Positions 18,456 to 40,546 of a stretch of DNA of 56,770 nt are shown here, in pieces (position 1 is the stretch's first letter; the number at the start of each line of letters is the position of its first letter). The notes below the pieces were generated by a model. It made no database searches and was not told the DNA's origin. It worked only from the letters and a program-made list of their open reading frames with translations. Origin of the DNA: a virus (Duplodnaviria; Caudoviricetes); IMG/VR virus record IMGVR_UViG_3300032893_000054, positions 1 to 56,770 of that record. One strand, given 5' to 3'. A program made the position numbers and the translations under genes.

Positions 18456-21203
18456 TCAGCCAGTCGCGCATGCGGCCTTCCTCGGCTTCACGTCCACCTC
18501 GTGCATGTCGGCCCAGTTCGGCCCCACATTGCACTCGGCGTCGATCCACAGCCCGTCCGGCGCTATCGTCGGATGCCGGAGCACTTCCGAGGGCCGGATG
18601 AGGATGGGATATACTTCACGCACGTGCTCGTCAACCATGGCTGCTGGGAAGTGGAAGACGAGAGAATCGTGTACGTTGTTCGACAGTCCGTACTTCTCGT
18701 TGAGGCCAGCTTTCTCCAGTAGCTTGATGTGCTCTCGGATGTAGCCAAACGCAATATTAGACAGGTGGTAAGAGATGGCCTCTTCCGCCTGATCCCCGTG
18801 AGAGTAAGCAGCCTTCTTATAATCCCACCGAAAGACCTCATAGAAGCGGCGAATGTGCCCATATTGTGTCCTCTGGAATTGCTGCTCGTGCGCGAGCTGC
18901 TGGACCTTCTTGTGCCACTCGAAGACGCGCGGGAACAAGGATTCGACGACGTCGAGGAATTCCTGCGCCTCCTTCTGGCCACTGAAATCCTCCATGTGCT
19001 TCTCGTAGAGTCCGCGCGCCTTGAGCCCGTTGCCGATGCCGAGGATCGCGTGCTTCATGCGGGCGTCGCGGATGTGCTTCCACTCGGGATTGGACTTCAG
19101 CCATCGACACTTGGCGCGGATCTCCCCGTCACTATAGTCACGTAGTAAGTCGATAGCATGCCACAGTCCCAGCTTGTGTCCGGTAACGATAGAGTGCATG
19201 TCGATCCGGGCGCAGCGTATATAATTTGCATCTTCGGCCAAGAATCCAAGAGTAAGCACGTGACAGGACTTGTAATCCCACTCTGATAGAACATACCCCT
19301 CCTTCGCCGCGATCATCTTGCGTACCGCCTTCGCCAGCCGACCGTGCTTGGGGAAGTTCTGGATGTTCGGATTGCGGGACGAGAGCTGGCCTATTCCTGT
19401 ATCAAAGGTGAACGTCGTATGTGCGAAGCCGTCCGCGTGTGGCTTGAATCCTTCTATGTACGTGCCCCTCATTTTGGACAGTTCGCGATACTCGATCACC
19501 TTCAGGTAGAAGTTGTCACCGGTGCGATTGGCTAGGCGGACGAGTTCCTTCTTCGCTGTCGTGTCTTTGTCGTTGCCTTCGTCGTCTTGCTTGCGGGACT
19601 TGGGGCGCTTGTGACCTTTGGCATCCATGTAAGCGAGAAGCTGTAATCCCGAGTTAGCGTTAAAAGGCACGACTCGACACCAGCGCGTGACGCTTCGTCT
19701 ACAAGGTTCACCAGTATCCTTTTCAACTTCTGTGACTGTGAAGGTACGTTCAACAAGGCCTGTAGTGTCGTTCGGCGTCCGGATATACCCGTAGTCATAG
19801 TTTCCTTTCTTACCGCGTCGCGGCTCCAGTCCCAGCACTTCCTCCGGCACCCTCGACTGGAGTTCCGCGTCGAGCTCCTGCTGCGCCAAGTCGAATTCCC
19901 CGTCTAGCTGCAGCCGGGTGGCGTCATCCACAGGCAGCCCGCGGCGCTCCATGGCGGCGAGGATCGGACGCACCTGCTGCACCTGACCCACGTAACCGCT
20001 CACGCAGTCCCCATCAGCGTCGTACGGAGAATCGTAGATCTGGTCCCGCCGCAACTGTTGATCGAGGAACGTATACAGCCGCAGCGTCGCATCCACGTCC
20101 ACGCAGCCGTAGAACTCCAGGTTCGTCGCCGCTAGATGCTTCCACGGGAACGGGAACTGCACGAACTGGGCACAGAACTGCAGGTGCGCGGGGAGATCCG
20201 GCTGCCAGTGGTGGAACATCTGCAGGGTATCGTGGATCACGCCGCGGGGGCGGAGGTCTAGTCCTTCGCGGGCTCCGCAGGCTTCGAGGACTTTGTTGTC
20301 GAAGAGCCACACGTTATGCCCGAACTTGGCGTTGGACGATCGAAGAACTCTCTGAACAACGCTTCGATACGCTCCTTCCCAAGGGAGCGCAATTCCTTCT
20401 CCAGCGCCCGCGCTGAATTGCACAAGTCGTAGGCGGGTATCAGTAAATCCATCTCGGGCATCTTCGTCGAGTGAGGCTGACTCGTAAGTCTCGATATCAT
20501 AAGAGACGACAAGCGATTCATTGTCTTCAACTCGCCGAGCAAACGCTTCCGCCTCATCGATACTTGGGTGCGTTTGATACCGTAGCGTCGCATACGTCTC
20601 CTTCCTTTCCGGATCAATATTCCACAGCCACTCCCTGTCCCGGCCCGCGGCCACGTTGACCGCTTTCATCACGGTGCGGGACAGGAGGCCTTGGTAGGAG
20701 GCCTTGCCGCGGCGGATGAAGGCGGGATGGTAGCAGCCGACCGTCGGTATCCCGTCCGGCCCGGGCAACGTATACCCGCCCAAGTGTGACACGCCCCTCG
20801 CCTCCCCGGTCATCCCTGTGAGCTCCCTGAGCGCCGTGTCGCCCAGCGCGAGGATCGCCCGGGGGCGGCGCTCGGCGATAGCCGCGTCGAGGTTCGGGCG
20901 GCAGTGGGTCAGCGCGGACCACTCCCACGGTGCACCGGTGAGCCAGTTGTTGCGCGGGCGGCAGCGGAGCATGTTGGTGAGAGAGAACTGCTGCCGCGAG
21001 AGGCCCATCCGCTTGAAGGTACGTTCGAGGAGGGAGCCAGCGGGCGCGTAGGGGCGCAGGGGGAGCTGGTCGCGTGCTTCCATTTCACCAGATGCTTCCG
21101 CGACGACCATAACGCCGAGCGATCCGGAGCCTTCGACGCGGGAGAAGTCGGTGCCGTGGGAGTAACAAGGACAGTCGGTGCAGGATGGAGGCTTGCTACG
21201 CAT
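18456..21203 (-). CDS. Family A DNA polymerase with N-terminal family-4 uracil-DNA glycosylase-like domain and 3'-5' exonuclease
   Basis: UDG: CTDC, AEASGEME, TNMLRCRP, YHPA. Exo I/II/III: YDIET, GHNVWLFD, YGCVD. Pol: LSSRNPNIQN, WDYK, DMH, K..ILG, VHDS. Confidence 0.9.
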   Translation of the reverse strand: MRSKPPSCTDCPCYSHGTDFSRVEGSGSLGVMVVAEASGEMEARDQLPLRPYAPAGSLLERTFKRMGLSRQQFSLTNMLRCRPRNNWLTGAPWEWSALTHCRPNLDAAIAERRPRAILALGDTALRELTGMTGEARGVSHLGGYTLPGPDGIPTVGCYHPAFIRRGKASYQGLLSRTVMKAVNVAAGRDREWLWNIDPERKETYATLRYQTHPSIDEAEAFARRVEDNESLVVSYDIETYESASLDEDARDGFTDTRLRLVQFSAGAGEGIALPWEGAYRSVVQRVLRSSNAKFGHNVWLFDNKVLEACGAREGLDLRPRGVIHDTLQMFHHWQPDLPAHLQFCAQFVQFPFPWKHLAATNLEFYGCVDVDATLRLYTFLDQQLRRDQIYDSPYDADGDCVSGYVGQVQQVRPILAAMERRGLPVDDATRLQLDGEFDLAQQELDAELQSRVPEEVLGLEPRRGKKGNYDYGYIRTPNDTTGLVERTFTVTEVEKDTGEPCRRSVTRWCRVVPFNANSGLQLLAYMDAKGHKRPKSRKQDDEGNDKDTTAKKELVRLANRTGDNFYLKVIEYRELSKMRGTYIEGFKPHADGFAHTTFTFDTGIGQLSSRNPNIQNFPKHGRLAKAVRKMIAAKEGYVLSEWDYKSCHVLTLGFLAEDANYIRCARIDMHSIVTGHKLGLWHAIDLLRDYSDGEIRAKCRWLKSNPEWKHIRDARMKHAILGIGNGLKARGLYEKHMEDFSGQKEAQEFLDVVESLFPRVFEWHKKVQQLAHEQQFQRTQYGHIRRFYEVFRWDYKKAAYSHGDQAEEAISYHLSNIAFGYIREHIKLLEKAGLNEKYGLSNNVHDSLVFHFPAAMVDEHVREVYPILIRPSEVLRHPTIAPDGLWIDAECNVGPNWADMHEVDVKPRKAACATG

Positions 21204-21579
21204 AGATCACCACAAGAGAGTCAAACGGAGCACTGTTCTTGGTTCCCGAAAACTTCAGCCTACCACGCAGAAACCGTATCTCCGTAGCGAAGGGCAGCAC
21301 TTGCTCGTGAAACCACTTAGTACCTGTACGTGATGGCAAGAGGAACACGGACACCTCAGCCACCTTACGCATCTCCAAGAACTCTGTAATCTTGTTATAA
21401 GGCGGATTGCAAAACACGCGATGTCCACGCCATTTTTCAACGTCCAGCCCATCCATAGAATACAGGGGATTGGGATCAGTATCTAACTTGAACTCTTCAT
21501 AGAGTTTGGCTCGAATGTCTTCGGGCGTAGCCCAGTGAACGGATTCCTTAGAGAAGATGCCCTTTACATTCATAACCAC
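21196..21579 (-). CDS. Phage N6-adenine DNA methyltransferase (Dam-like, short)
   Basis: WATP, VFCNPPY, LLPSRTGTKWFH, IRFLRGRLKF, APFDS; AT-richer than its neighbours. Confidence 0.85.
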   Translation of the reverse strand: MVMNVKGIFSKESVHWATPEDIRAKLYEEFKLDTDPNPLYSMDGLDVEKWRGHRVFCNPPYNKITEFLEMRKVAEVSVFLLPSRTGTKWFHEQVLPFATEIRFLRGRLKFSGTKNSAPFDSLVVIYA

Positions 21580-22961
21580 GGCCTCACCCTCTCATCCACC
21601 GCGCACTGCTTCACATACCGCTCCCGCTGGCCCACCACGCGCAATCCCTCCAGCGTGCGGCATCGAGACATGGCCACGTAGAGCATCGCCGGGGAGCCGA
21701 AGAAGTGGTCACGGATATCGATCTGGCAGCGATCCAGACTGAGCCCCTGACTTTTATGACAAGTACTCGCGTATGCCAGCCGCACGGGCCATAGCTCGAC
21801 TTGCCCCTCCGCGAACCGCCGCTTGTCCGGCATCCAGTGCGGCCGCGGGCACCACTCCCCGTGCCCGGTCGCGCCCAGCCCCTTCGCCCATCCCTCTGGC
21901 TTCGACTTGGTGCCCACGTCGCGGACCACGCGCGGGACGTCGACCAGCGACCCGTTGCGGACTAACTCGACCCACAGGTGGGAGGCGTCGGAGCCCTCCG
22001 CCACGTGGCCGCAGTCCCCGTTCGCGTACACGAGGTTGCGGTCCTCGTCGTAGCGGTTGGCGAGGAGCATGACGTAGGCGCCCTGCTTGAGTGTCACCCG
22101 GTCGGGCACCTGCTTCCACTCGCCGCGCTGCTTGCCCCAGCGGCGATTGCCCAGCGTGAACGTGCGTCCGGGGAGGCGGTCGAGGGCCATCCCGTTATAC
22201 CTGTCTACTTGGTCGTTCTTGCTGACGATCGTGGTGCCATCGAAGTCGAGCGATAGCGCCGAATGCCACTCCAGCCCCTCCTGCGCCAGCACCTGCGACG
22301 CGGCATCACCATTCCCACTCCGGGTGAGGTTGAGCGCGTTCAGGAACGGCCCGGCGTCCTGGCGCCATACCTTGGTGAGTCGCGTCGTGTGGGCGTCGAA
22401 GCGGTGCCACTCGTCGGACTCGAACGCCCAGCGCGCGCGGACAGGAGGGAGCTGCGCGAAGTCGCCGACCAGCGTCAGGCCGATCGGTGGCTGATCGGAT
22501 ACGAACGAATTGGCCTCCAGCGCCGCGCGGACGAGGATGGACAGTTGTTCCCCGTCCATCATCGACACTTCGTCGATCACGATCCGGCGGTAGTCGTCGC
22601 GCAGCTCGCGCAGGCGGCGGACGAGGGAGCCATTGAGGTACGAATCGCGCAGGGAGTCAGTGTCGAAATAGCGCAGGAGGGAGTTGAGCGTGGTGGTGCC
22701 GAGGTTCACGGCGGCGATGCCAGTCGTCGCGGCCAGCACGCCTGCGGAGGGGTCTGCGGCTATCCGTTCCCGCCAGTGGAAGGTCTTGCCCGAGCCGGCG
22801 ACGCCGCAGGTGAACTCGCAGGGCACCGTGGCTTCCCCTGCTCCCGGCTCCACTTCCACCGGGTCTGCCAGTGGATCCATGAGTGGTAGGAGATCAGCCC
22901 CTGACGGCTCCTGCGCTGCCAGTTCGCCTTGCTGAGGTTTTTGCATATCCTGCATTGCCAT
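21570..22961 (-). CDS. Pif1/RecD-like SF1B DNA helicase
   Basis: GVAGSGKT, ATTGIAA, IDEVSM, GDFAQLPPV, LTKVWRQ, LAYASTCHKSQGLSL, YVAMSR. Confidence 0.92.
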   Translation of the reverse strand: MAMQDMQKPQQGELAAQEPSGADLLPLMDPLADPVEVEPGAGEATVPCEFTCGVAGSGKTFHWRERIAADPSAGVLAATTGIAAVNLGTTTLNSLLRYFDTDSLRDSYLNGSLVRRLRELRDDYRRIVIDEVSMMDGEQLSILVRAALEANSFVSDQPPIGLTLVGDFAQLPPVRARWAFESDEWHRFDAHTTRLTKVWRQDAGPFLNALNLTRSGNGDAASQVLAQEGLEWHSALSLDFDGTTIVSKNDQVDRYNGMALDRLPGRTFTLGNRRWGKQRGEWKQVPDRVTLKQGAYVMLLANRYDEDRNLVYANGDCGHVAEGSDASHLWVELVRNGSLVDVPRVVRDVGTKSKPEGWAKGLGATGHGEWCPRPHWMPDKRRFAEGQVELWPVRLAYASTCHKSQGLSLDRCQIDIRDHFFGSPAMLYVAMSRCRTLEGLRVVGQRERYVKQCAVDERVRPWL

Positions 22962-23401: not shown

Positions 23402-24151
23402 TCACTTGGCCGCGCCAGTGCCCTGCGTGGCCTGCGACTCCTTGAGCGAGAACGGAGCCACCAGCCGCGCTTGCGCCCGCACCTGTTGCTTGCAGACTTG
23501 GCACTGCACCATGGGATCGTGCACGCCGGGCGTCTTGGTCGCGGCGAACCGATGCATACCCTGCAGGATCGGCCGCGGCTGTCGCTCCCCGCGCTTCTTC
23601 GCCACCTCCTGGCAGTGCTGGCACTCGGCCGACCACGCGGTCTCGTAGATCAGTTCCGGTTCCGACGCCAGCACCTGTAGCAGCGTCTCCATGACCGCCT
23701 TCTGGGTGGGGGAGGGGGGAATCTTGCCGCCCAGCTTCAGGATCATGGTGGCCGCCTGCGACGTGCCCTTGCGCTGGTCGACCAGCGTCTTGACCCAGTA
23801 GTCGGTGAGTTGCGTCCCGTCGAAGTCGCCAGAATGGTCGATCACCGAATACTGGATGTTGGTCGCGAAGAACGGCCGCCCGTTGTCCATCTTGGCGCGG
23901 GAGAAGACCGCATACCGTTGCTGCTGCCCGCGGTCGTCCTTGATGTCGAACTGCTTGGCCTTCATGCGCCATTTCCCGTCGGGCAGCGGGGGCAGGACCG
24001 CATACGCATCCGCCTCCGGGTCGATGGTCAGGACTTCGGAGGTCAGCCGGGGGTCGTTAGGGTCGATCAACTGCTGCGGCTCGCTACCGGATGAGGGCTG
24101 AGCGTCAGCAGGTGCGTCTGTGTTCATCACTTCACCAAATGCTGCTGTCAT
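23402..24151 (-). CDS. ssDNA-binding protein candidate (DUF669-like OB fold) with Zn ribbon
   Basis: PLPDGKW motif after an acidic N-terminus; directly downstream of the AAA_24 ATPase; CQHC/CQVC pairs. Confidence 0.5.
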   Translation of the reverse strand: MTAAFGEVMNTDAPADAQPSSGSEPQQLIDPNDPRLTSEVLTIDPEADAYAVLPPLPDGKWRMKAKQFDIKDDRGQQQRYAVFSRAKMDNGRPFFATNIQYSVIDHSGDFDGTQLTDYWVKTLVDQRKGTSQAATMILKLGGKIPPSPTQKAVMETLLQVLASEPELIYETAWSAECQHCQEVAKKRGERQPRPILQGMHRFAATKTPGVHDPMVQCQVCKQQVRAQARLVAPFSLKESQATQGTGAAK

Positions 24152-24160
24152 TGTTGTCTC

Positions 24161-25186
24161 CTATTTAGTTGATACTGTCGTTGTAGCCTTGCCGCGCCCT
24201 AGCTTCTCGTCGGCGCGCTGACGCCAACCTTGTAGTGTGTCCGCCTGGCCGGCGGCCAGTTCGTCCACCGTGGCCAGATAGCGGTCGAGCCCACCGGAAT
24301 CGTCGGACTCGAAGTATCCGCCCGGGAACCGCCGCTCCAACTCCTTCACCTTCTCCGGCGTCACACGCGGCTTGGCGGGGAACAGGATCCCGGTCGCAGG
24401 GTCCGGATGCTTCTTGTAATAGAACCGGACCACCGTGTCCAGCAGTTTCTGGTCGACCAGCTTGGACTTGTCCGTCGGGTCTGGCACCTTCTCGATGCGC
24501 TCGATCGAGTAATCCTGCGCGTGAATCAGGTCGCCCACCCATGAGCCGCATTGCGATGTCGCCTTCTTGCCGGAGATCGCAGGACCGTAGATCGTCGAAC
24601 GGTCGTCGTCTTCGGTCTTCGACTCCAGCGCGGTGTAGAGGACGTAGCGCAGAGGGAGGGAGTTGAAGTTCATCACCAGGCCGTAGAGGAAGTTCTGCAC
24701 GAAGCCGTAGTCGCCGCGCGTGGAGGACATGAACGATTCCTGCTGCGACACGCCATCAATGACCACTTGGTTGTAGAATCCGCCCAGCTTCGCCCGATCC
24801 TCGCCGCCCACGTTCTTATTGGTGTCGGGGAGATAGCGCATCGCGGCCGAGGTGATCGACGTCCAGCCTTCGACAATCATTCCGCCGATGAGATCGTAGT
24901 TGAGCCGGGTGAGTCCTTGCGCGCTGTAGGGGTCGGCCAGGTCCTTCGGCCAGTAGCCTTGCGACACCTTGCGCAGGATAGCCAGCGGCACGATCGTGGA
25001 GTCGCAGAAGAACGGCACGATCATCCCTGCGTCGATCTCGGGCTGGCACGGCCCCCAGCCGCCGCCATCCATGGAGAGGAGCGCGGTGGCCTTGCCGGTG
25101 GTGCGTGCGATGTAGTGCGCGAACCACTTGCCCTGGGTCGTCTTCCGCGATCCGGTAGAGCCGTAGACGCAGCCGCTCCTAGCCAT
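24161..25186 (-). CDS. AAA_24 / Sak4-like ATPase (recombination)
   Basis: N-terminal VYGSTGSRKTT (variant Walker A), IVEGWTS (Walker B-like), DYG, YGPAISGK. Confidence 0.75.
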   Translation of the reverse strand: MARSGCVYGSTGSRKTTQGKWFAHYIARTTGKATALLSMDGGGWGPCQPEIDAGMIVPFFCDSTIVPLAILRKVSQGYWPKDLADPYSAQGLTRLNYDLIGGMIVEGWTSITSAAMRYLPDTNKNVGGEDRAKLGGFYNQVVIDGVSQQESFMSSTRGDYGFVQNFLYGLVMNFNSLPLRYVLYTALESKTEDDDRSTIYGPAISGKKATSQCGSWVGDLIHAQDYSIERIEKVPDPTDKSKLVDQKLLDTVVRFYYKKHPDPATGILFPAKPRVTPEKVKELERRFPGGYFESDDSGGLDRYLATVDELAAGQADTLQGWRQRADEKLGRGKATTTVSTK

Positions 25187-25569: not shown

Positions 25570-25625
25570 GCATAAAATATCAGAATTTGATGCAATGTCT
25601 GGTGCCGTCTACTGAGACCAGAGCT

Positions 25626-26033
25626 TTACGTTCCGTCCTTTTTGGGAATTCTAGCTTCTGCGTCCCGGATGGCAAACGCGCAGGCCACTGAGCGGGACTC
25701 GGTTATGAATCCATCGCACTGCTTGTGGACTTCATCGACGGAGACGCGTTCCTCGCGCAGCCGCTTAAGCATGTAGGCGATTGCGTCATCAAATGCGTAA
25801 TGGAATGTGGCGTTATATTGAATCTCCTCCGCAGTGTGCCAAGCCTTCTGCTCCTTAGCCTTCGGCGGCTCTCCGCTTGGCTCCAGCGTGACCGGAGTGC
25901 GCGAACCGAGATGCGGCGCGTAGTCAAACGAGCAGAATGTCGTACTGTTAATATCGGCGTTCGGGTTACATGACCAGACGTTCGCTTGCTGCCCTACCGC
26001 TGCCAGTACCAGTGCCAAAGCGAAAGAGGTCAT
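25626..26033 (-). CDS. Hypothetical protein with hydrophobic N-terminus
   Basis: GAGGAG RBS; MTSFALALVLAAVG. Confidence 0.55.
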   Translation of the reverse strand: MTSFALALVLAAVGQQANVWSCNPNADINSTTFCSFDYAPHLGSRTPVTLEPSGEPPKAKEQKAWHTAEEIQYNATFHYAFDDAIAYMLKRLREERVSVDEVHKQCDGFITESRSVACAFAIRDAEARIPKKDGT

Positions 26034-26263
26034 CGGGTTGGCTCCTCCGCGCAATCCCAAGCGAACAATCCAGAGTTGCCTTTCTTTGTGGTGCTGGCAT
26101 CCATGAACCAGTAATCACTTTGCGCGAAAATGCAATCGTCCTGAGGTGGGATCGGCTTATAAGTCCACACGTACTGCCGTCCAGTTGGAAGCGGAATATA
26201 CCAAGCCGCATATCCAGCCAAAAGTGGTGTAACCAGAACTAACAATATTAGCCAGCGCGTCAT
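26030..26263 (-). CDS. Hypothetical protein with signal/TM segment
   Basis: ATGA overlap; hydrophobic N-terminus. Confidence 0.5.
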   Translation of the reverse strand: MTRWLILLVLVTPLLAGYAAWYIPLPTGRQYVWTYKPIPPQDDCIFAQSDYWFMDASTTKKGNSGLFAWDCAEEPTR

Positions 26264-26357
26264 TTCCGCCCCTCGTTCATGGCCTCTCCCTCGCTTTTTA
26301 CAACACGTACCACGTAGGGCTGATGTGCCGCGACAATGTAATCACTAGGCGTGTTCT

Positions 26358-26582
26358 TCATGGCAATCCTCCAGTCTCCCCGCGACCAATTTGGATGTCG
26401 TCGAATCCTGTGAACTTGGGTATAGCTGATCTACGCAGAACACACATATTTAACCGCCACATCTCATCGAGATAATCCAATGACTCATCTGTCGGCGCTT
26501 CAGGTATCCATACTTGGATAAGGCTATCGTGGCCTGACGTGCAGCCGATCTGGTACAAGCGCAATATAGGTTTCGTCGCCAT
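26358..26582 (-). CDS. Hypothetical protein
   Basis: Purine-rich RBS; member of the small-gene array. Confidence 0.5.
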   Translation of the reverse strand: MATKPILRLYQIGCTSGHDSLIQVWIPEAPTDESLDYLDEMWRLNMCVLRRSAIPKFTGFDDIQIGRGETGGLP

Positions 26583-26676
26583 TGTCCCTTCCTCCCTCAG
26601 CCCTCACTGCGATACGAAATATGAAACCAGCACAGCACCCGCCCGCACCAACCGACAATCGGTCGTGAACCGCGTG

Positions 26677-26931
26677 TCAGTGATGGTTGAACACGCTTGG
26701 ATCACATCTTCGACATTTGTAAACCATTGCCACCGTTACGCGAACCATCTGTAGACCGCAACGGGAACAGTTCGATTCCAATTTGGTCGCACCCGTGGCA
26801 CACGGTCGATTAACTTGAAATCCGTCGTCAAACCGAAGCCAGTGTCGCAAGATCCCATCGCCGTAGATGTCCTCCGCCTTTTTCCAGTGGCGCACATCTT
26901 GGCATCTAGCGCAGACTTTTCGGATATCCAT
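26677..26931 (-). CDS. Cys-rich (multiple CxxC) hypothetical protein
   Basis: CARC, CSRC, CRRC. Confidence 0.5.
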   Translation of the reverse strand: MDIRKVCARCQDVRHWKKAEDIYGDGILRHWLRFDDGFQVNRPCATGATKLESNCSRCGLQMVRVTVAMVYKCRRCDPSVFNHH

Positions 26932-27334
26932 GACAATCCTCACGTTGACATGCCTGTCCCTCTCCACAGTCGCAACTAGTCGTTTCTTCTAAATCTTGAA
27001 TCTGCTCGCATACAATGCACACACTATGCCAGCCGATATCATGCGGTGGATGTAGCTGGCGCAGCAATCGCGCCGCAACAGTCAGCCGCGACTGGGGATC
27101 AAGTTCCTTTGTAAGCGGGTTAAACGGGATACGCACTTTCTTTGATGTTTGATGGCGAGCTACCTTGCAATCATTCGGACAGGTGCAGGGTCCGTCTGGG
27201 TCTTTGCCATAACTACTCATAATCCCCTCACTTTTTTGGGGTTTCATGTGTCGTACTGACGTTCGTTCTTTTGACCCCCAGTACCCATCATGCCAACCTC
27301 GACCCTTAAAGTTCTGTCTGCGGAAACGGCTCAC
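26906..27334 (-). CDS. Cys-rich hypothetical protein (start uncertain)
   Basis: GTGA overlap upstream; CTCPNDC, CIVC. Confidence 0.45.
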   Translation of the reverse strand: MSRFRRQNFKGRGWHDGYWGSKERTSVRHMKPQKSEGIMSSYGKDPDGPCTCPNDCKVARHQTSKKVRIPFNPLTKELDPQSRLTVAARLLRQLHPPHDIGWHSVCIVCEQIQDLEETTSCDCGEGQACQREDCHGYPKSLR

Positions 27335-27519
27335 AACTGTTTCTCGGCTTTCTTGACCGCTTCATCATTCTGGCGATTCAGTTCGTCGTATTTCGCCTGA
27401 ACCTCTGGGCTCGCTTTGTCGTAGGCCGCTTGCATGTCGGCATCGGTTCCGTAGGGATAGACGCCTAGCAACTTGCGCATCTCATCCAAGATGGCGATGT
27501 GCTTCTCTTCCCAGTTCAT
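27331..27519 (-). CDS. Hypothetical helical protein (MNWEEKHIAIL...)
   Basis: GGAGGAAACAATG start context. Confidence 0.55.
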   Translation of the reverse strand: MNWEEKHIAILDEMRKLLGVYPYGTDADMQAAYDKASPEVQAKYDELNRQNDEAVKKAEKQL

Positions 27520-27592
27520 TGTTTCCTCCATTGAGTACAGCGGGAATCGGCTGCCATCCACTTCAGGAATTGAGGCTTACTAAGGCTCATAA

Positions 27593-27931
27593 TCAATCGA
27601 CGTCTCCGCATTCTGTGGACTCAGTGAAATCCTCAAAGCACTCGTTAGGTGAATTTACGGTCATCCACATCGACATGCACGTCTCGCAGCCTTCGCGATC
27701 TCCCACGGCACACACCATGCCTTTTTCGCCGAACAATCCGGTCTGGTCATTGATGATCTCTCCGTATCGCCGAACGCTGCGACTCTTGTAGCACCCGTAT
27801 CCATAACTCGACATCTTCTGATCTTCGTGCCACTCGCCGTAAACTGCATACCCATCAGGATGAGCGCCACAGCCAGTCAGAAATGGGGAGGTGGAGAGAA
27901 GCAAGAAGATGAGCAAGAATTGTGGCTTCAT
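27593..27931 (-). CDS. Putative lipoprotein, Cys-rich
   Basis: MKPQFLLIFLLLSTSPFLTG|C lipobox. Confidence 0.6.
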   Translation of the reverse strand: MKPQFLLIFLLLSTSPFLTGCGAHPDGYAVYGEWHEDQKMSSYGYGCYKSRSVRRYGEIINDQTGLFGEKGMVCAVGDREGCETCMSMWMTVNSPNECFEDFTESTECGDVD

Positions 27932-27944
27932 GATTGATTGATAT

Positions 27945-28051
27945 TCCTAGAAATGCTGTAAAACCTGTCGCGATCTTCTACGAAATTCGGGCATGGGCTA
28001 GGCTCCTTCTCCTAGAAATGCTGTAAAACCTGTCGCGATCTTCTACGAAAT
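27945..28051. repeat. 42-bp exact direct repeat (27945-27986 and 28010-28051) separated by the linker motif
   Basis: TCCTAGAAATGCTGTAAAACCTGTCGCGATCTTCTACGAAAT occurs twice, period 65. Confidence 0.95.
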
Positions 28052-28214
28052 AAGGCTTTTCTGCTTCGATCAGAATGTCATCACCTTCGTCGCTTTCGTA
28101 GTACAGGTCTTTGCTGTCAGGCACTCCGAAGAATGCCCGGAGGTTGCTGCCTTTATGTTCGCCACGCAGTAGAGCGTAATTCGTCTTGTTGTGCTTAATA
28201 TTTGCTATTTGCAT
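27978..28214 (-). CDS. Possible ubiquitin-like (beta-grasp, multi-ubiquitin-type) protein, 78 aa
   Basis: GGAGGAAACAATG start; pattern I.HN...Y......G..L...FGVP...DLY.......D.LI......V...DRFYS. Confidence 0.45.
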   Translation of the reverse strand: MQIANIKHNKTNYALLRGEHKGSNLRAFFGVPDSKDLYYESDEGDDILIEAEKPYFVEDRDRFYSISRRRSLAHARIS

Positions 28215-28237
28215 TGTTTCCTCCGTTCGGGCATGGG

Positions 28238-28462
28238 CTAGGCTCCTTCTCGTATGGGCACAAATTCGTAATCTTCGGAAGCGTCCGATTCGCCAGTCGT
28301 GCATGTGAAACACAGTCCACATCCTCCGTATCTCCATATAGGCTGACCACATTGGCACTTTCCACGAGATTTGGCGGCCCTCCGTAATTCCTTCAGGGTA
28401 CGCGTGTCACCTTGTTCCTTAGCTTGTTCTGGCGTTATGAAACCATAGAAATTGTTGGGCAT
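28238..28462 (-). CDS. Zn-finger-like hypothetical protein
   Basis: CQC, GLCFTCTTGESDASED; starts and ends in linker copies. Confidence 0.65.
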   Translation of the reverse strand: MPNNFYGFITPEQAKEQGDTRTLKELRRAAKSRGKCQCGQPIWRYGGCGLCFTCTTGESDASEDYEFVPIREGA

Positions 28463-28465
28463 GGG

Positions 28466-28756
28466 CTAGGCTCCTTTGCCTTCGTATGGTGGTGACAACC
28501 AAATATCCATGCAATCGAGGCAGGTGTAACACTTTGACCAGATGCCCTCGACTAAAGCGGATTCGTATCTCGCTTCCGTGCCTGCCGGGATTTCGTGCGG
28601 ATGCCCATTTAAAATCGGAGGAGGTACACAGGTAGCAGGCTTGCGCGTCTTGACAATTCTTACCTTGCGCAGCCGAATATCCGTTTCCCCGTCACCCCAC
28701 GGATAATTGAACGGATCGTGCCACAAGTACGTCGGGTCATTTAGGCGGTTTGTCAT
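28466..28756 (-). CDS. Zn-ribbon hypothetical protein
   Basis: KTRKPATC...IPAG...CLDC; ends in the linker. Confidence 0.65.
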   Translation of the reverse strand: MTNRLNDPTYLWHDPFNYPWGDGETDIRLRKVRIVKTRKPATCVPPPILNGHPHEIPAGTEARYESALVEGIWSKCYTCLDCMDIWLSPPYEGKGA

Positions 28757-28762
28757 GGTGGG

Positions 28763-29074
28763 CTAGGCTCCTTTGGGCGCGGCCTTCTCTGGTACGGAAT
28801 TGGTTCCTCCAGAATCGCGCGACGAACTCGTGTACCGGATCGTTCCGATAGCACCCGGTATTGGCTGTGGCGTTGCTTGCGGTAGGGACGAAACCCCAAA
28901 TGCGTGATTGATGACTCGGCAGACCACTTCGTAAAATATTCGCGCCGAAGCCTCATCTACGCTGTAGAACAGTCCGCAAACCGCCTGCCCGTAAGTCGTA
29001 GGATCAGTGCCGCGAAGTTCAACAATCCACTCTTTACCAGGCTTGCTAAGTTTTATTAGTTCCTGTGCATTCAT
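28763..29074 (-). CDS. Hypothetical protein
   Basis: RBS; ends in the linker (KGA-stop). Confidence 0.55.
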   Translation of the reverse strand: MNAQELIKLSKPGKEWIVELRGTDPTTYGQAVCGLFYSVDEASARIFYEVVCRVINHAFGVSSLPQATPQPIPGAIGTIRYTSSSRDSGGTNSVPEKAAPKGA

Positions 29075-29093
29075 TTCTGCGTCTCCCTCGCCC

Positions 29094-29327
29094 TCAAACT
29101 TCCGTGTCTAGTGAAATCGGGTAAGTTGTATGTCCGTGAACACAGACTCGCACTGGCCGACCGAAAAGAACTCTCAACCGTTCCTTCCATGTCAGACGCC
29201 AGTACGAAGCTATGAATCCGTCACCGTCGCTTATCGGCAAGCCGACAATCGGCCCGTCAGTCTCTTCATCCCAGAACGGCGGAGCGCCTAGAACTCTCGT
29301 TGTGTGTGGAAGTGATATTGGTTTCAT
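29094..29327 (-). CDS. Hypothetical protein
   Basis: LGAP..WD....LP...SYWRLTWKERL pattern; RBS. Confidence 0.65.
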   Translation of the reverse strand: MKPISLPHTTRVLGAPPFWDEETDGPIVGLPISDGDGFIASYWRLTWKERLRVLFGRPVRVCVHGHTTYPISLDTEV

Positions 29328-29545
29328 CGCGTCTCCTTCGATCTCTCGGCCTCAGCGATCACTTGATTTGCTTCATACTTCGCTATTGCGAACGTGGCAC
29401 ACGTTCCGTTATCGTGCCCACGCTCCCAGTAAACCGACCACGCCCATCTCTGTAACGGCGAAGGGGCGCCAAAAATCTCCGCATTGGCTTCAGAAGACGA
29501 ATAGAAATACAGCTTCGGCTTCTTGCGCGTCCACGAGCCTTTCAC
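29324..29545 (-). CDS. Hypothetical protein
   Basis: Coupled overlaps at both ends. Confidence 0.5.
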   Translation of the reverse strand: MKGSWTRKKPKLYFYSSSEANAEIFGAPSPLQRWAWSVYWERGHDNGTCATFAIAKYEANQVIAEAERSKETR

Positions 29546-30198
29546 TGGGATTCTCCCTTCGATCTCTCGGCGGTCGGCGGAGCCAAGAACGGACGAAGAA
29601 GTATCTGAATCCGCCTCAGCGCAAACTCGGCATCCTCGCCATCTTCAACTTGATTCTCGCCACTGCACCATTTGTCAATTTCGCGTGCTACGGCTATCCA
29701 CGGTGACTCGACCGAAGAACGCGCCGCCTTCGCCTGCCAGCCTAGCCAGTAGTGCTGCACGTGGTCTAATACATAATCTCCATCCTCGTCGCGTTTGAAC
29801 CAATCGGCCTCCAGAGGCATGGCATCAGCTTCATACCATTCCTCAAACTCCGCTCGTTCGTCCGTTGGCTCCGTACCTACGTCCGTCGCTCTCCGATTTA
29901 CGATCTGATCGCCGTCTACGTCCAGCGGCTCTCTTCCGCATTCCGGGCAAGGCTCGATCAGCATTTTGCCGTGAGAGCAGTCCGTCGCTGGGCGCATCGC
30001 CTCCGATTGTTGCTCGATATAATCGGCTAGAATCACGTCCACATCTTCGGGATGCGGCGGAACATGCAAACTCGGTGCAGGCTTCCCGTTGTACACGGCC
30101 CCGTGGTACTTACGAACGGCCTCGCGTGCCATTTCGTGCGTAACAATCCTCTTACCTGCTTGCGGCGTCCGAGTTGGCGCTGTCCTCTCAGTAGACAT
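29542..30198 (-). CDS. Mosaic multi-domain hypothetical protein
   Basis: AAGGAA RBS; ERAEFEEW...WLGWQA module typical of phage early proteins. Confidence 0.6.
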   Translation of the reverse strand: MSTERTAPTRTPQAGKRIVTHEMAREAVRKYHGAVYNGKPAPSLHVPPHPEDVDVILADYIEQQSEAMRPATDCSHGKMLIEPCPECGREPLDVDGDQIVNRRATDVGTEPTDERAEFEEWYEADAMPLEADWFKRDEDGDYVLDHVQHYWLGWQAKAARSSVESPWIAVAREIDKWCSGENQVEDGEDAEFALRRIQILLRPFLAPPTAERSKGESQ

Positions 30199-30559
30199 AA
30201 ATTCCTTTCTTTGCTACAAAGCACGTCCCCGAAGTTTGTCCCGGTGGGATGGGGCCCTACCCGCGTACTATCGTGATGTGGCCAGATGGACAAACGAACA
30301 CCTTTCCCGCAGGAGAGCCATGCGGAGCGCTATCGGGATGAGCCATGTCCGGTATCGAGCAAACGGAACAGTACACTCGATAACTTTGCCCCGGTTTTGT
30401 CTTTACGCGAGAGCCGTTTTTCTTGCCGTGTCGATCAGTCTTTCCTTTGATTCTGATGTCCACCACTCACCACCTTCTCCTACGCTTGGGGGTAGGGACC
30501 CATCCCACTGAATTGACCAACAGCAAAACTGTTTAGCAAATAAGGGCTGTCCTCTCAGT
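30179..30559. repeat. Cassette bounded by 14-bp direct repeats, with internal 19-bp inverted repeats
   Basis: DR GCTGTCCTCTCAGT at 30179-30192 and 30546-30559; IR at 30244-30262 and 30490-30508 (1 mismatch). Confidence 0.85.
30257..30466 (-). CDS. Small basic Zn-ribbon protein inside the inverted repeats
   Basis: AGGAGAAGGTGG upstream; CSVC...CPSGH. Confidence 0.5.
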   Translation of the reverse strand: MVDIRIKGKTDRHGKKNGSRVKTKPGQSYRVYCSVCSIPDMAHPDSAPHGSPAGKVFVCPSGHITIVRG

Positions 30560-30560
30560 C

Positions 30561-32147
30561 TCACTCATGGCTCCGGGCCTCCTTCTCCATCACGTGATTC
30601 GGCTCGCGCCGGCGATACAGCCCAGATCCCAGTGGATCGCGCTGCAGGTCTTCCGAGCCCCAGCAGATCTTCGACATGGCGCAGGTGGAGGGGTACTCGC
30701 AGGCCTTCCGAGTCTGGCTGAAGTGCTGATTCAATAGGCTGCGCCGCTCGCCCTCATCGGTTGTGGATTCCAGCTGCGCCACGGCCTCAGCCACGCGCCG
30801 CTCCTGGTACTCGGTCTGCTCCACCCAGTTTCGTAACTCTTCGTCTTGCCGGAACACAGTGATCGGCGGAACGAATACCGCGTCCAGAGGATGCTGGGCC
30901 GTGTAGCCGACCGCCTGCGCGCGCGACTTCCATCCCACGGGACGCGGGTCGGCGCCGGTGGTCGAGTCGTAGGCGGACATGGTCTCCTCGGCGTCGTCAA
31001 GCGCGTCGATCCACGCACGGACGCTGCCACCGTGCTCCCACACCGGCTCGCCGTGCCAGTTGGACGCGGACAGTTTGGACGTCGATCCGTCCTCCAGATG
31101 GTAGTCCCACGACCACGCCTGATCGCCGACGTTGAATGCCGATGCGTTCTTCCCTCGCGATGGCGTCGAATGGGCCACGAAGCGGCGGATCAGGTGCGAG
31201 CGCTGGGACCACACGTTGAGCCCGAACCGCTGGGAGAGTTCCTTGTCCTGCCACCTACTGCCCTTGAGCAGATATTCGTAGCGGATGCCGAGGATCCGGG
31301 GTGGGGCGGGTACTCCCCCGAGGAAGTTGACCACAGGCAGCACTTCGGCCGCGGTGTAGCCTGCCGGGACATTCAGCAGCCCTCCGGCTTGGCGCATCTC
31401 CTGCCACCATGCCGCCAGCCGCCGCTCCACCTCCACGCCCTCGCTCAGCCCCTGCATGTCGTGCTCGGCATCGCGGGCCTTGCGGATGTCCCACGACGCT
31501 GCCGTCTTGAATGAGAGGAGGTAGAGGGAATTGTCGTTCCGGTTGCGGAGGAGCGCGTCGGGGCGGGACATGAAGCGGATCGCAGGGACTACCGTCAGAT
31601 TAGTACCGTGTACTCCTTCGTAGAGTTCCCAGTCCCCCTCCCGCTCCACCTCCAGCACCTCGTACTCCTCCAGCAGGGGACGGAGGCGGCGCCTAGAGTA
31701 AGCGCGGACGAGTCCCTCCACCAAGCTGGCTTGCTCCTGCCACAGCCAGTCATCGAACTGGGCTGACGCGCTGTCCCGCTGCTTGGCCAGCGCCACGAGG
31801 GACGGATCGTCCGCGGGGAGGCCCAGATCGGCCGCCGTAGCCAGCATCTGCGACTCCAGCGACTGAGGATCGACGGTGGTCATCGCGGTGAGCTCGGTGG
31901 TGTCGAGCGCCAGGGCGCGGCGGTGGGTGGCAAAGTCAGCAAGGGCAGCGGCGACCGCAACGTCCTCGGTATCGCCCAGCAGGAGATGTTCGAGGCCCAC
32001 GTGGACGGAGCCGCCGACACACAAGGCTAAAGGTTTGCGTGCTGGTGCAATTCCTGTCCCGTTCTGGTGATACTCCAGAAATCTCAAACGCGGACACCGT
32101 TGGTATGTCTCCGTTCTCGACCGATCAGTCCACACGATGTCAGGCAT
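30561..32147 (-). CDS. PD-(D/E)XK Cas4/RecB/AddB-like exonuclease
   Basis: YQRCPR, GGSVH, EVERE, RPDALL, SFKT, and C-terminal CEYPSTC...C (Fe-S staple). Confidence 0.75.
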   Translation of the reverse strand: MPDIVWTDRSRTETYQRCPRLRFLEYHQNGTGIAPARKPLALCVGGSVHVGLEHLLLGDTEDVAVAAALADFATHRRALALDTTELTAMTTVDPQSLESQMLATAADLGLPADDPSLVALAKQRDSASAQFDDWLWQEQASLVEGLVRAYSRRRLRPLLEEYEVLEVEREGDWELYEGVHGTNLTVVPAIRFMSRPDALLRNRNDNSLYLLSFKTAASWDIRKARDAEHDMQGLSEGVEVERRLAAWWQEMRQAGGLLNVPAGYTAAEVLPVVNFLGGVPAPPRILGIRYEYLLKGSRWQDKELSQRFGLNVWSQRSHLIRRFVAHSTPSRGKNASAFNVGDQAWSWDYHLEDGSTSKLSASNWHGEPVWEHGGSVRAWIDALDDAEETMSAYDSTTGADPRPVGWKSRAQAVGYTAQHPLDAVFVPPITVFRQDEELRNWVEQTEYQERRVAEAVAQLESTTDEGERRSLLNQHFSQTRKACEYPSTCAMSKICWGSEDLQRDPLGSGLYRRREPNHVMEKEARSHE

Positions 32148-38591: not shown

Positions 38592-39021
38592 ACTAGAGTT
38601 GACCCCACATCCGGACGAGCAACGATCGCTGGCAGAGTTGCGATCCGAGTTCCGTGCCCAGCACCTCGCCGACTTGCGTTCCCAGTACGCAGGCTACCAC
38701 CCCGTCGGCTGGGCCATGATCGGCGATCCGGAGATGTCCCGGTCACAATTCACCGCGCACGAGTGGTCCGAGCAAATGTTGAGATGGCTGGACGCTCCCT
38801 GCACGCAGGACTTCGGCCTTCCAGCGGTCCCTGCTGCCACCGTCGACCGCCTGTACAAGCTGGCCGAGGAGTCCCTGCTCCACGAATCCGCGACGTGGGA
38901 TTCCAGCGTCGATGGCGTCACCGACCACGACGCCCCGCCGTGCGCCGACGTACTGACGATGACGGATGAACAACTCTGTACGTACATTGACCAAGCGATC
39001 GAGGCTTCCGCAAATGGCTAA
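38584..39021 (+). CDS. Hypothetical acidic protein
   Basis: AAGGAGG RBS. Confidence 0.6.
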   Translation: MPELELTPHPDEQRSLAELRSEFRAQHLADLRSQYAGYHPVGWAMIGDPEMSRSQFTAHEWSEQMLRWLDAPCTQDFGLPAVPAATVDRLYKLAEESLLHESATWDSSVDGVTDHDAPPCADVLTMTDEQLCTYIDQAIEASANG

Positions 39022-40546
39022 GTTCAACATCTCCCGCATCGTCCCCGAAGGTTTCATCCACTCCTCCGGGTTCCTTGAAGTCATCGACTCGCTCGCGTGG
39101 TCCCTCGCTGCTCTGGAGCACGATGTCAACGTCACGCAGAACTGGTTCTCTGAGTCCAAGGAGCACAATATCCTGTTCGGCGCTGAACTGGTCGCCGACT
39201 TCCAGCGCCTGCCGCCCGGGACCATCATCTTCAACCTTGAACAGCCGTCCCATCCGCGCCTCGACGTCGTCCGCCGAATAGCTAAGGAGTCTGATGCCGT
39301 AATATGGGACTACTCTCACCGCTCGGTCGCTGACTGGCGTGATCGAGGCTTTACCAACGTTTATCACGTCCCTATTGGTTACACTCCCAACCTGACTCGT
39401 ATTCCACACCTCGCTCCCGACTACGACGTCTTCTTTTGCGGTTGGCCTACTCCGCGCCGCGTGGAACTCCTGAATTCCCTCCGCGCCGCCGGCCTGCGTG
39501 TGTTCTTCTCCGACGCCTGCTACGGCGGGGGCCGTGACAACGCGATCGCCCGCTCTCGCCTCTGCCTCAACGTGCACCACGACGGCCGCGACCGCTTCGA
39601 GATCGTGCGCTGCTCCTACCTGATGGCCAACTCGCACGCTATCGTCACCGAGGTTTCCTCCGATGACGACGAATACGCGGACCTGCAGGGGATCGAGCGC
39701 GTACCCTATCGCCTGCTCACTGACTTCACCATGTCCCTGCTGACCAACGACCGCCAACTCCAGGACATGCAGATGCAATCCCTCGTGTCGATCAAGAAAC
39801 GCAACTTCGTCGAATCCGTCGACGCGGCGCTGAAGGACTGGCAACCCGCGACGCCATCCACCGCGCCGGTCATGTCGAAGCCGCTCGCCCACGCCATGGC
39901 CAGCTCCGAGCGCAAGCGCGACTATCTGTCCGCCGCCCGCGTCCTCCCCCGCGCCATCCCGACCGGCGCCCGCGACCCGCGCGTCGCAGCCCGCTACCAG
40001 GCCGCCCTCCGCCAGGGCGACATGAAGGACTTCGTCGAGTGGATGGCACAGCACGCCAAGGGCAACATCCTCGAGATCGGCGTGCGCGACGGCGCCTCCA
40101 CCTCTGCATTCCTGACCGGCCTCGAACTCGCAGGCGGCCACCTCTACTCCGTCGACGTGCAGCCCTGCGGCCACCTGTTCTCCGGCCATCCCCAGTGGAC
40201 CTTCATCCACCTCAACTCGATCGAGTTCCAGAAGGTGATCGCGCAGATCCCCTACGAGCTGGACATCATCCTGATCGACGGCGACCACTCCAAGGTGGGC
40301 GTGCTGACCGACTGCGAGTACCTGCGCCAGCTCCGCCCCGGCGGCATGGCCCTGTTCCACGACATCGCGCCGGAGCCTAACTCGACCAACGATCCCACGT
40401 GGCCGGGTGACGCGGTGAAGGAGGTCTACGAGTCGCTGTGCCGCGGCATGGCGGAGCACGGGTGGACGAACGAAATCCTGCCGGGACGCTACGGGATGGG
40501 AGTGCTGCGCCGCCCGCAGCCGCAACCAGCAGAGGTGAGCGCGTGA
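39014..40546 (+). CDS. Glycosyltransferase (GT-B-like) fused to class I SAM methyltransferase
   Basis: YDVFFCG..TPRR, SRLCLNVH, FEIVR; C-terminal ILEIGVRDGAST, YSVD, ILIDGDH, LRPGG...FHD. Confidence 0.8.
   Translation: MAKFNISRIVPEGFIHSSGFLEVIDSLAWSLAALEHDVNVTQNWFSESKEHNILFGAELVADFQRLPPGTIIFNLEQPSHPRLDVVRRIAKESDAVIWDYSHRSVADWRDRGFTNVYHVPIGYTPNLTRIPHLAPDYDVFFCGWPTPRRVELLNSLRAAGLRVFFSDACYGGGRDNAIARSRLCLNVHHDGRDRFEIVRCSYLMANSHAIVTEVSSDDDEYADLQGIERVPYRLLTDFTMSLLTNDRQLQDMQMQSLVSIKKRNFVESVDAALKDWQPATPSTAPVMSKPLAHAMASSERKRDYLSAARVLPRAIPTGARDPRVAARYQAALRQGDMKDFVEWMAQHAKGNILEIGVRDGASTSAFLTGLELAGGHLYSVDVQPCGHLFSGHPQWTFIHLNSIEFQKVIAQIPYELDIILIDGDHSKVGVLTDCEYLRQLRPGGMALFHDIAPEPNSTNDPTWPGDAVKEVYESLCRGMAEHGWTNEILPGRYGMGVLRRPQPQPAEVSA

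Follow-up and report, generated by a model that had tools for sequence, protein, structure and literature searches.

An apparent new subfamily of phage uracil-DNA glycosylase–polymerase fusions, predicted to replicate DNA with an alternative nucleotide pocket

Family A DNA polymerases (PolAs) have been divided into 19 clusters, and the text of that classification states that the crucial residues are strictly conserved (Czernecki et al., 2023; PMC10201439). The sole change in the TGR motif given in that text is Ala for Thr in one cluster, and Phe at position B4 is described there as unique to DpoZ. Leu at the F762 site (position B3) is presented as an established natural variant, found in the SPO2-like, KPP25-like, APEX, CHEAP, phiJL001-like and phiVC8 DpoZ subfamilies. 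Fusions of PolA to a uracil-DNA glycosylase (UDG) that fall outside the N4-like cluster were left unclassified, according to the same text. The SPO1-like and SP15-like UDG-PolAs have since been defined, with a canonical steric gate (Missoury et al., 2026; PMC13697223). In that account, the SP15-like enzymes of YerA41 and phiLo excise deoxyuridine (dU) from the template. In phiLo, a Glu and a His of the UDG domain are described as catalytic, and the abasic site is bypassed mostly by dA insertion. This report describes a UDG-PolA fusion of 915 amino acids (aa) encoded by the soil-type phage of virus record IMGVR_UViG_3300032893_000054 (Caudoviricetes); the whole record, 56,770 nucleotides, is called the window below. 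Compared with the published clusters by their text, the enzyme appears to belong to a subfamily of the known UDG-PolA kind that has not previously been described.

The fusion is very probably a functional replicase of a new UDG-exonuclease-PolA subfamily, as judged from sequence conservation. The full reading is that it serves as the phage's own proofreading replicase, in a new subfamily, with an alternative pocket and ordinary dNTP selectivity; we give this a probability of roughly 0.6. On sequence grounds, the chemistry core is canonical, with the catalytic Asp pair, the two His and the Lys and Arg of the O-helix all in place, and the sugar and minor-groove second shell has been replaced lineage-wide as a set. 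In this set TGR has become xGQ, the steric-gate Glu a His, position B3 a Leu, position B4 an Asn, Phe or Leu, and the R..N...Q of motif 6 E..S/A...S/A-N. The gene and its domains read as follows.

18456..21203, minus strand: UDG / 3'-5' exonuclease / family A DNA polymerase fusion (P0001), 915 aa (open reading frame list and translation)
20634..21203, minus strand: family-4 UDG-like domain, about residues 1-190 (Pfam UDG; phmmer to Thermotoga TM0511 and Sulfolobus UDG)
20034..20591, minus strand: 3'-5' exonuclease domain, about residues 205-390 (Exo I D236-x-E238, Exo II D302, Exo III Y365-x3-D369)
18489..20006, minus strand: polymerase domain (thumb, palm, fingers), about residues 400-905 (hhalign to canonical PolAs, probability 100; Foldseek)

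Profiles and fold agree on the nature of the protein. Pfam PF00476 (DNA_pol_A) scores 92.9 bits on the 915-aa open reading frame (ORF) against a cut-off of 34.3, and 96.8 bits in the genome search, summed within the polymerase frame. The PHROGs match is phrog_17, DNA polymerase (E 1.3e-56). The NCBIfam equivalogs of bacterial Pol I (the PRK05755 and TIGR00593 equivalents) are not reached, with 77.9 bits against 720 and 61.7 against 600, and the DpoZ model also stays below its cut-off (29.3 bits against 500). An AlphaFold2 model that took 94 aligned relatives as input has a mean predicted local distance difference test (pLDDT) of 93.5 and a predicted template-modelling score (pTM) of 0.91, and its confidence is high across the entire palm and fingers. 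When this model was compared with Klenow, Bst and KlenTaq by Foldseek, the target-normalised template-modelling (TM) scores were 0.73-0.80 (probability 1.00, E down to 1e-24). In a library of predicted viral structures, identity to the model was at most 22% among the best 50 matches listed. The profile, the fold, the motif A and C Asp and the O-helix Lys are thus those of family A. By alignment, other marks of the family are missing, namely the Arg of TGR, the Glu of the steric gate, Tyr at B4, and R841, N845 and Q849 of motif 6.

The two N-terminal domains keep their own motifs. Pfam PF03167 (UDG) matches residues 28-167 with 59.2 bits (cut-off 24.3), and the family-4 model TIGR00758 scores 69.6 bits against a cut-off of 125.3; given the latter score, the domain is best regarded as a divergent fused UDG. 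It contains four Cys (C8, C11, C81 and C101), motif A VVAE with E36, and motif B HP (H159-P160). All seven residues are at least 90% conserved in the 94-sequence alignment and align by phmmer to TM0511 and the Sulfolobus UDG. E36 and H159 match the catalytic Glu and His described for phiLo (PMC13697223), and by this analogy we infer that the domain is catalytically active and surveys the template. The exonuclease motifs align to those of E. coli, SP-10 and JP1 with hidden Markov models (HMMs) and hhalign, and D236, E238, D302, Y365 and D369 are invariant (94/94 sequences).

A first-pass annotation of the window had singled out 18456-19480, which correspond to residues 575-915 (palm and fingers) of the polymerase ORF, and had called the pocket completely rewired from a by-eye alignment to E. 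coli Pol I. The residue registers were examined with three alignment methods: phmmer against KlenTaq, family HMMs against E. coli Pol I, and an hhalign profile-profile comparison of six reference polymerases with the 94-sequence family alignment (probability 100). The E. coli Pol I reference came from a K-12 record with its residue numbering confirmed, and the motif coordinates were confirmed by translation. T7 gp5 was left out as a residue reference because it is too distant for the family HMM to align its motifs (E 0.018, 19.9 bits). The equivalences are those of sequence and profile alignment, not of superposed structures, and E. coli Pol I residues stand on the right in the lines below.

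19377..19394, minus strand: IGQLSS, equivalent of the TGR motif, with Q606 at R668 (three alignments)
19260..19277, minus strand: motif A DYKSCH, with catalytic D643, H648 at E710 and K645 at S707 (three alignments)
19026..19070, minus strand: motif B / O-helix RDARMKHAILGIGNG, with R712=R754, K717=K758, L721=F762 and N725=Y766 (hhalign)
18756..18785, minus strand: motif 6 EEAISYHLSN, with E807=R841, S811=N845, S815=Q849 and N816=G850 (HMM and hhalign registers agree)
18663..18671, minus strand: motif C HDS, with H845=H881, catalytic D846=D882 and S847=E883 (HMM and hhalign)

The TGR equivalent and motif A are fixed by direct pairing, since phmmer sets KlenTaq GRLSS against GQLSS and DYSQIE against DYKSCH. 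In all three alignments, R668 of E. coli Pol I corresponds to Q606 of the phage polymerase and the steric gate E710 to H648. Further along, F762 (position B3) is replaced by L721, Y766 (position B4) by N725, R841, N845 and Q849 of motif 6 by E807, S811 and S815, and E883 of motif C by S847. Five residues are retained, with D705 as D643, D882 as D846, K758 as K717, H734 as H670 and H881 as H845. All eight substitutions named in the first-pass annotation were therefore reproduced by alignment, its five retained residues were recovered as the same pairs with HMM and hhalign, and none of the three methods places a canonical residue at a substituted site. The list can be extended. R754 is retained as R712, but with one extra residue ahead of K717; hhalign adds S707 to K645, S769 to K728 and F771 to R730; and G850 of motif 6 becomes N816 by both HMM and hhalign. 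The O-helix spans residues 706-724 in the AlphaFold2 model.

The description of the pocket as completely rewired was nevertheless too strong. The eight substitutions hold, but the metal ligands and the triphosphate-binding residues are canonical, and two of the eight, F762L and E883S, are common natural variants. The polymerase of Thermus phage Tt72 is biochemically active and has Ser at the E883 site, as described in the text of PMC9324360. Motif C reads HDS in SP-10 and MW202455, HDA in N4 and HDD in JP1, so Ser at this position is not special. What is unusual at the core is that the Arg of TGR, the Glu of the steric gate and Tyr at B4 are lost along with Arg, Asn and Gln of motif 6.

This pattern extends well beyond the window. 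One protein collection yielded 459 matches at E<=0.001 among 3067 candidates, and the best 120 of these (50-88% identity) are for the most part proteins of about 900-1000 aa that combine UDG with PolA, encoded on 55-65 kb contigs. An exhaustive search of representatives at 50% identity yielded 13,955 matches at E<=0.001, of which 732 also pass E<=1e-30; identity is 33-74% in the 150 best listed. Residues were tallied over 267 proteins, made up of the listed relatives (down to about 33% identity) and the query. The 94-sequence alignment (31-82% identity to the query) was taken from 125 sequences of fit length and coverage and thinned to below 75% pairwise identity. Among the 267 proteins, position 606 is Q in 256 and position 648 is H in 253, next to the catalytic D643 and D846 (259 each), K717 (253) and H845 (256). 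Position 807 is E in 232, position 721 is L in 222 and position 816 is N in 212. Other sites have more than one common state: position 725 (the Y766 site) is N in 123, F in 94 and L in 31; position 815 (the Q849 site) is A in 134, S in 84 and Q in 33; and position 847 (the E883 site) is S in 190, A in 41, E in 11 and D in 9. In the 94-sequence alignment, Q606, D643, H648, K717, H845 and D846 are invariant (94/94). The pocket pattern across the 267 proteins lies far beyond chance.

The related loci in IMG/VR give the same picture, with Q at 606 in 39/43 and H at 648 in 40/43. The exceptions are two truncated genes, two with an intein-sized insert that disrupts the alignment, and one distant canonical enzyme (R and E); no form intermediate between the canonical and the altered pocket was seen among the 43 loci. 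The variable sites were also followed on a FastTree phylogeny of the 94 sequences built without the motif columns. Of 7 independent pairs, 6 link Leu at the Y766 site to a kept Gln at the Q849 site and none runs the opposite way (median p ~0.03). A link between C647 and N725, which has 112 C-N pairs in the raw counts, is not claimed because just 5 independent pairs remain on the tree, of which 3 point the same way, none the opposite way and 2 are unchanged (p 0.25).

Many relatives reach 1200-1400 aa owing to intein-sized inserts (141-420 aa) at a few hot spots, which correspond to window residues of about 255, 338, 591-612, 679 and 740 of ORF 18456-21203. One relative has a LAGLIDADG Pfam domain, and the window's own polymerase gene is without an insert. 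Several relatives also contain zinc-ribbon-like inserts of the Cys-x2-Cys...Cys-x2-Cys type, one within the UDG domain and one just after motif B (alignment columns of about 160-215 and 1072-1100), and none is present in the window's protein. The placement of the intein-sized inserts relative to the motifs was resolved for two relatives: in P0020 the insert lies exactly within GQLSS, ahead of the last Ser, and in P0091 it directly follows NPN. Inserts of this kind in an altered motif indicate that the motif is functionally critical, as expected for an essential active site.

The window spans an entire virus record, whose completeness is rated at 100% with direct terminal repeats, and terminase, portal, major head and tail genes are present. 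Family searches were made in the same 36 records throughout (the window and 35 related ones), 26 of which are at least 90% complete. PolA was found in 36/36, as a single frame in each, and family B polymerase in 0/36. The UDG-PolA fusion is the only DNA polymerase found in the window and in all 36 records.

Set beside the described UDG-PolAs, the family stands apart from each. The closest cultured or deposited phage polymerases are about 23% identical, and the TGR-motif Arg and steric-gate Glu are present in all references aligned (SP-10, N4, Agrobacterium phage JP1, MW202455 and E. coli Pol I). Among GenBank phage polymerases, the family HMM scores MW202455 best (206.9 bits, mostly over UDG and exonuclease), and that of Bacillus phage SP-10 reaches 113.3 bits. 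These two are SPO1-like enzymes, the former from an uncultured spring-water phage, and share with the phage polymerase the order of family-4 UDG, 3'-5' exonuclease and PolA, the retained UDG catalytic motifs and the HDS of motif C. Unlike the phage polymerase, SP-10 and MW202455 keep TGR, DYSQ(I/L)E, F..YG and R..N...Q. SPO1-like phages carry thymidine-modification genes, as stated in the text of PMC10201439 and seen at the MW202455 locus, whereas thymidylate-synthase-like genes were found in 0/36 records of the present lineage. With this absence and a non-canonical pocket, the enzyme does not appear to be SPO1-like. At the MW202455.1 locus (L008, 1-5337), the UDG-PolA gene is directly downstream of pyrimidine hydroxymethylase, thymidylate synthase and ligase genes, and its pocket is canonical except for HDS.

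The N4-like enzymes (cluster 17 of Czernecki et al., 2023) likewise join an N-terminal family-4 UDG-like domain to an exonuclease and PolA, and the neighbourhood in N4 is similar, with an SF1 helicase, an exonuclease and a Sak4-like protein. According to the text of PMC10201439, the N4 UDG is without catalytic residues and N4-like enzymes have Phe at B3; the phage polymerase keeps the catalytic Glu and His of its UDG and has Leu at B3, and on both counts it appears not to be N4-like. The N4 polymerase further differs in its SGR, steric-gate Glu and HDA, and N4 gp39 scores only 71 bits with the family HMM. N4 has a primase, whereas none was recognised in the present phage when the window was searched for an N4 gp43 homologue.

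The SP15-like enzymes combine an active-type UDG with a replicative PolA and provide a working model for the excision of template uracil ahead of synthesis (PMC13697223). As described there, they run to about 1300 aa because of a C-terminal domain and two large inserts; their steric gate is canonical, their O-helix carries a Phe, and they co-occur with PolX and ligase. The phage polymerase is 915 aa long, ATP-dependent ligase was found in 0/36 records, and PolX was not searched for; on size and ligase the enzyme is not SP15-like. Nor does it appear to be a DpoZ, given 29.3 bits against 500 and PurZ-type adenylosuccinate synthetase (PF00709) in 0/36 records. The Leu-B3 subfamilies share Leu at the F762 site with the phage polymerase but otherwise keep the catalytic and conserved positions, and the text of PMC10201439 reports in them neither His at A2 nor Gln in TGR. 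No description of a PolA with His at the steric gate or Gln in TGR was found in the literature searched for this subfamily. Members of the present family could be among the UDG-PolAs left unclassified in PMC10201439; it is by the text of that paper that the family is set apart.

The structurally characterised enzymes Klenow, Bst and KlenTaq have the same fold, metal ligands and triphosphate-binding Lys, Arg and His. The phage polymerase differs from them in being 17-20% identical, in ten substituted sites (R668, E710, F762, Y766, R841, N845, Q849, E883, S769 and F771), in having one residue more between Arg and Lys of the O-helix, and in insertions in the thumb and fingers. Single-subunit RNA polymerases likewise have no Glu in the gate position, and in their motif C the Asp is followed by Ser. 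Kinship with them was considered and set aside because the canonical SP-10 and MW202455 UDG-PolAs also read HDS, and because an invariant exonuclease and a UDG domain point to DNA synthesis.

How such a pocket would work can be outlined. The enzyme would polymerise dNTPs on a DNA template by the usual two-metal route. The imidazole of His648 may pack on C2' and assume the role of the steric gate, and Gln606, probably together with Asn816, would make shorter hydrogen bonds in the minor groove. Any kinetic checking lost in this way would be offset by the invariant exonuclease. Ahead of the active site, the N-terminal iron-sulphur (Fe-S) UDG would scan the template for uracil, as in the SP15-like enzymes. 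The polymerase would act with an SF1 helicase, a Sak4-like ATPase, a single-strand-binding (SSB)-like protein and a PD-(D/E)XK nuclease in a recombination-type mode of replication.

Several points weigh against the reading of a replicase with ordinary dNTP selectivity. The activity and selectivity of every family member are inferred. Klenow mutants at R668, E710, Y766, N845 or Q849 lose catalysis or fidelity, as far as described in PMC10520511 and PMC3715850, and ordinary behaviour therefore needs compensation. The R-x4-K spacing of the O-helix is unusual. With no primase of the Prim-Pol, Toprim_2 or N4 gp43-like type recognised in the window or its related records, a non-standard start of synthesis is possible. 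Finally, few of the 44 ORF translations could be named by Pfam and PHROG scans; most phage genes are without a family assignment, and an unknown nucleotide pathway could hide among them.

It is conceivable, though unlikely, that the rebuilt pocket alters the handling of sugars or lesions. In one version, discrimination against ribonucleotides would be weaker, or synthesis would extend from RNA or unusual starts, in a phage without a recognisable primase; in another, the enzyme would insert efficiently opposite the abasic sites made by its own UDG domain and extend past them. The sugar-selection and fidelity checkpoints mapped in Klenow are the very sites substituted here (E710, Y766, F762, R668, N845 and Q849; PMC10520511 and PMC3715850, in the portions that treat them), and the template-side R841, S769 and F771 are substituted as well. 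Prim-Pol and Toprim_2 were found in 0/36 records and an N4 gp43 homologue was not found in the window by tblastn, but many phages can do without a primase of their own, and the side chain of a His can still keep out a 2'-OH. The UDG domain keeps its catalytic motifs, the SP15-like enzymes are described as excising template dU and then bypassing the abasic site (PMC13697223), and the Y766 and Q849 sites co-vary. Against this, SP15-like enzymes (PMC13697223, as described there), SP-10 and MW202455 all combine an active-type UDG with a canonical pocket, so a UDG fusion need not bring rewiring, and the ATP-dependent ligase that SP15-like repair would use downstream is among the families not found in the 36 records. 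That the lineage dropped the Glu gate and both minor-groove readers since its substrates, for instance ribonucleotides or abasic sites, are selected or tolerated differently is likewise doubtful.

A pocket fitted to a non-canonical nucleotide in the phage DNA (a modified pyrimidine, 2-aminoadenine, a deazapurine or another) is improbable. Its appeal lies in the relatives: SPO1-like and SP15-like UDG-PolAs belong to modified-thymidine phages, according to the texts of PMC10201439 and PMC13697223, and MW202455, the closest GenBank phage polymerase by family HMM, adjoins thymidylate-synthase and pyrimidine-hydroxymethylase genes. The loss of both minor-groove readers could also fit a base altered in the minor groove. 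However, thymidylate synthase/hydroxymethylase (PF00303), PurZ-type adenylosuccinate synthetase, TGT/DpdA (PF01702) and dUTPase (PF00692) were each found in 0/36 records, while the same method gives PolA in 36/36. A 526-aa methyltransferase-domain protein is present in only 6/36 records and a Dam-like gene in 3/43 loci. Furthermore, the polymerases of the modified-DNA phages SP-10 and MW202455 have a canonical pocket, as does DpoZ (by the text of PMC10201439), whose model the enzyme does not approach. The first-pass suggestion of modified nucleotides thus finds no genomic support in the four marker families. For its other suggestions (rNTP use, priming and abasic-site bypass), the sole hints are the kept catalytic motifs of the UDG and the lack of a primase that could be recognised. 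Least probable is a degenerate and inactive polymerase domain, retained only as scaffolding for its UDG and exonuclease, with phage replication left to the host. Several near-universal PolA residues have been lost together, and single mutations at these sites cripple Klenow (PMC10520511, where it treats them). Decay would not, however, yield substituting residues that are themselves invariant or nearly so, and relatives as distant as about 31% identity still share the catalytic Asp pair, the two His and the Lys and Arg of the O-helix. Intein-sized inserts target the altered motifs, the model is confident throughout the palm and fingers, and a dedicated helicase, an SSB-like protein and an annealing module are present. 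The first-pass annotation had proposed altered specificity rather than decay. The second half of this stands, and selection is favoured, because the altered residues are conserved family-wide, the exonuclease residues are invariant and the enzyme is the sole polymerase found in 36/36 records; altered specificity itself is not demonstrated.

Returning to the reading of a dedicated phage replicase, its candidate partners are encoded upstream in the same direction.

21570..22961, minus strand: PIF1/RecD-like SF1 helicase, adjoining the polymerase (Pfam PIF1, AAA_30)
23402..25186, minus strand: 249-aa protein and 341-aa Sak4-like ATPase (PHROG 124 Sak4-like, E 4.6e-07)
30561..32147, minus strand: PD-(D/E)XK nuclease, 528 aa (Pfam PDDEXK_1, E 1.6e-4)

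Homologues of these genes lie within 10 kb of the polymerase in most of the 43 related loci: the PIF1-like helicase in 32, the 249-aa protein and the Sak4-like ATPase in 30 each, and the nuclease in 28. The 528-aa nuclease has an Atlas feature score of 0.98 to viral PDDEXK_1 clusters. The 249-aa protein has a weak structural likeness to DUF669 in the Atlas (TM 0.40/0.67), which serves as a lead only, and an Atlas feature search with it gave no usable match. Together, the helicase, an SSB-like protein, the Sak4-like ATPase and the PD-(D/E)XK nuclease are consistent with a recombination-type replication module. When the N4 replication proteins were compared with the window by tblastn, only the polymerase and a marginal helicase match were recovered.

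Other features of the window were noted in passing. An exact 127-bp direct repeat at 1-127 and 56644-56770 fits either a terminal repeat or a circular-assembly overlap. A gene for a Dam-like N6-adenine methyltransferase (21196-21579, minus strand; PF05869, E 5.3e-10) overlaps the polymerase start codon by 8 bases and is close to the polymerase only in the few related loci counted above. The 526-aa protein has a C-terminal Methyltransf_24 domain (38966-40546, plus strand); next come two proteins without a known function, one of them phrog_1574 (40886-42773, plus strand), just upstream of the terminase region. Between the Sak4-like and PD-(D/E)XK genes, a chain of small ORFs at 25600-30560 (minus strand) has a lower G+C content (0.51-0.53 against about 0.61 elsewhere). 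These ORFs look like variable early genes because they have no Pfam matches and no homologues in the flanks of related loci.

Fragments of the polymerase gene were binned with metagenome-assembled genomes (MAGs) of Acidobacteriota (Terracidiphilus) and Solirubrobacterales, which is a weak hint at host range. On a 2.5-Mb contig of an uncultured Acidobacteriota MAG (L054:3004-3615), a stand-alone ORF of 203 aa matches just the exonuclease domain (residues 192-384) at 56% identity, with no UDG or polymerase part alongside. This ORF, perhaps captured or left as a remnant, hints at Acidobacteriota as the host phylum.

The steric-gate Glu, the TGR Arg and the motif 6 Asn and Gln are usually regarded as fixed in family A polymerases, and the same residues are the usual engineering targets for acceptance of ribo-, 2'-modified and xeno-nucleotides. 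Here a natural enzyme from a large uncultured family has kept a Pol I-type catalytic core and proofreading with the residues that check sugar and minor groove replaced. All of them have been replaced together in hundreds of sequence clusters in an enzyme that is still the predicted sole replicase of complete phage genomes, and the pocket may therefore be more evolvable than the studied enzymes suggest. If substrate handling were indeed altered, ribonucleotide extension or insertion could permit replication without a primase, and His648, Gln606 and Asn725 would mark a second way, reached by natural evolution, of building the PolA nucleotide pocket. The finding also extends UDG-polymerase fusions to a lineage without a sign of thymidine modification. 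With three sub-types at the Y766 site and members with or without the Q849 residue, the family offers a natural set of variants for study, and it may supply polymerases of useful substrate range.

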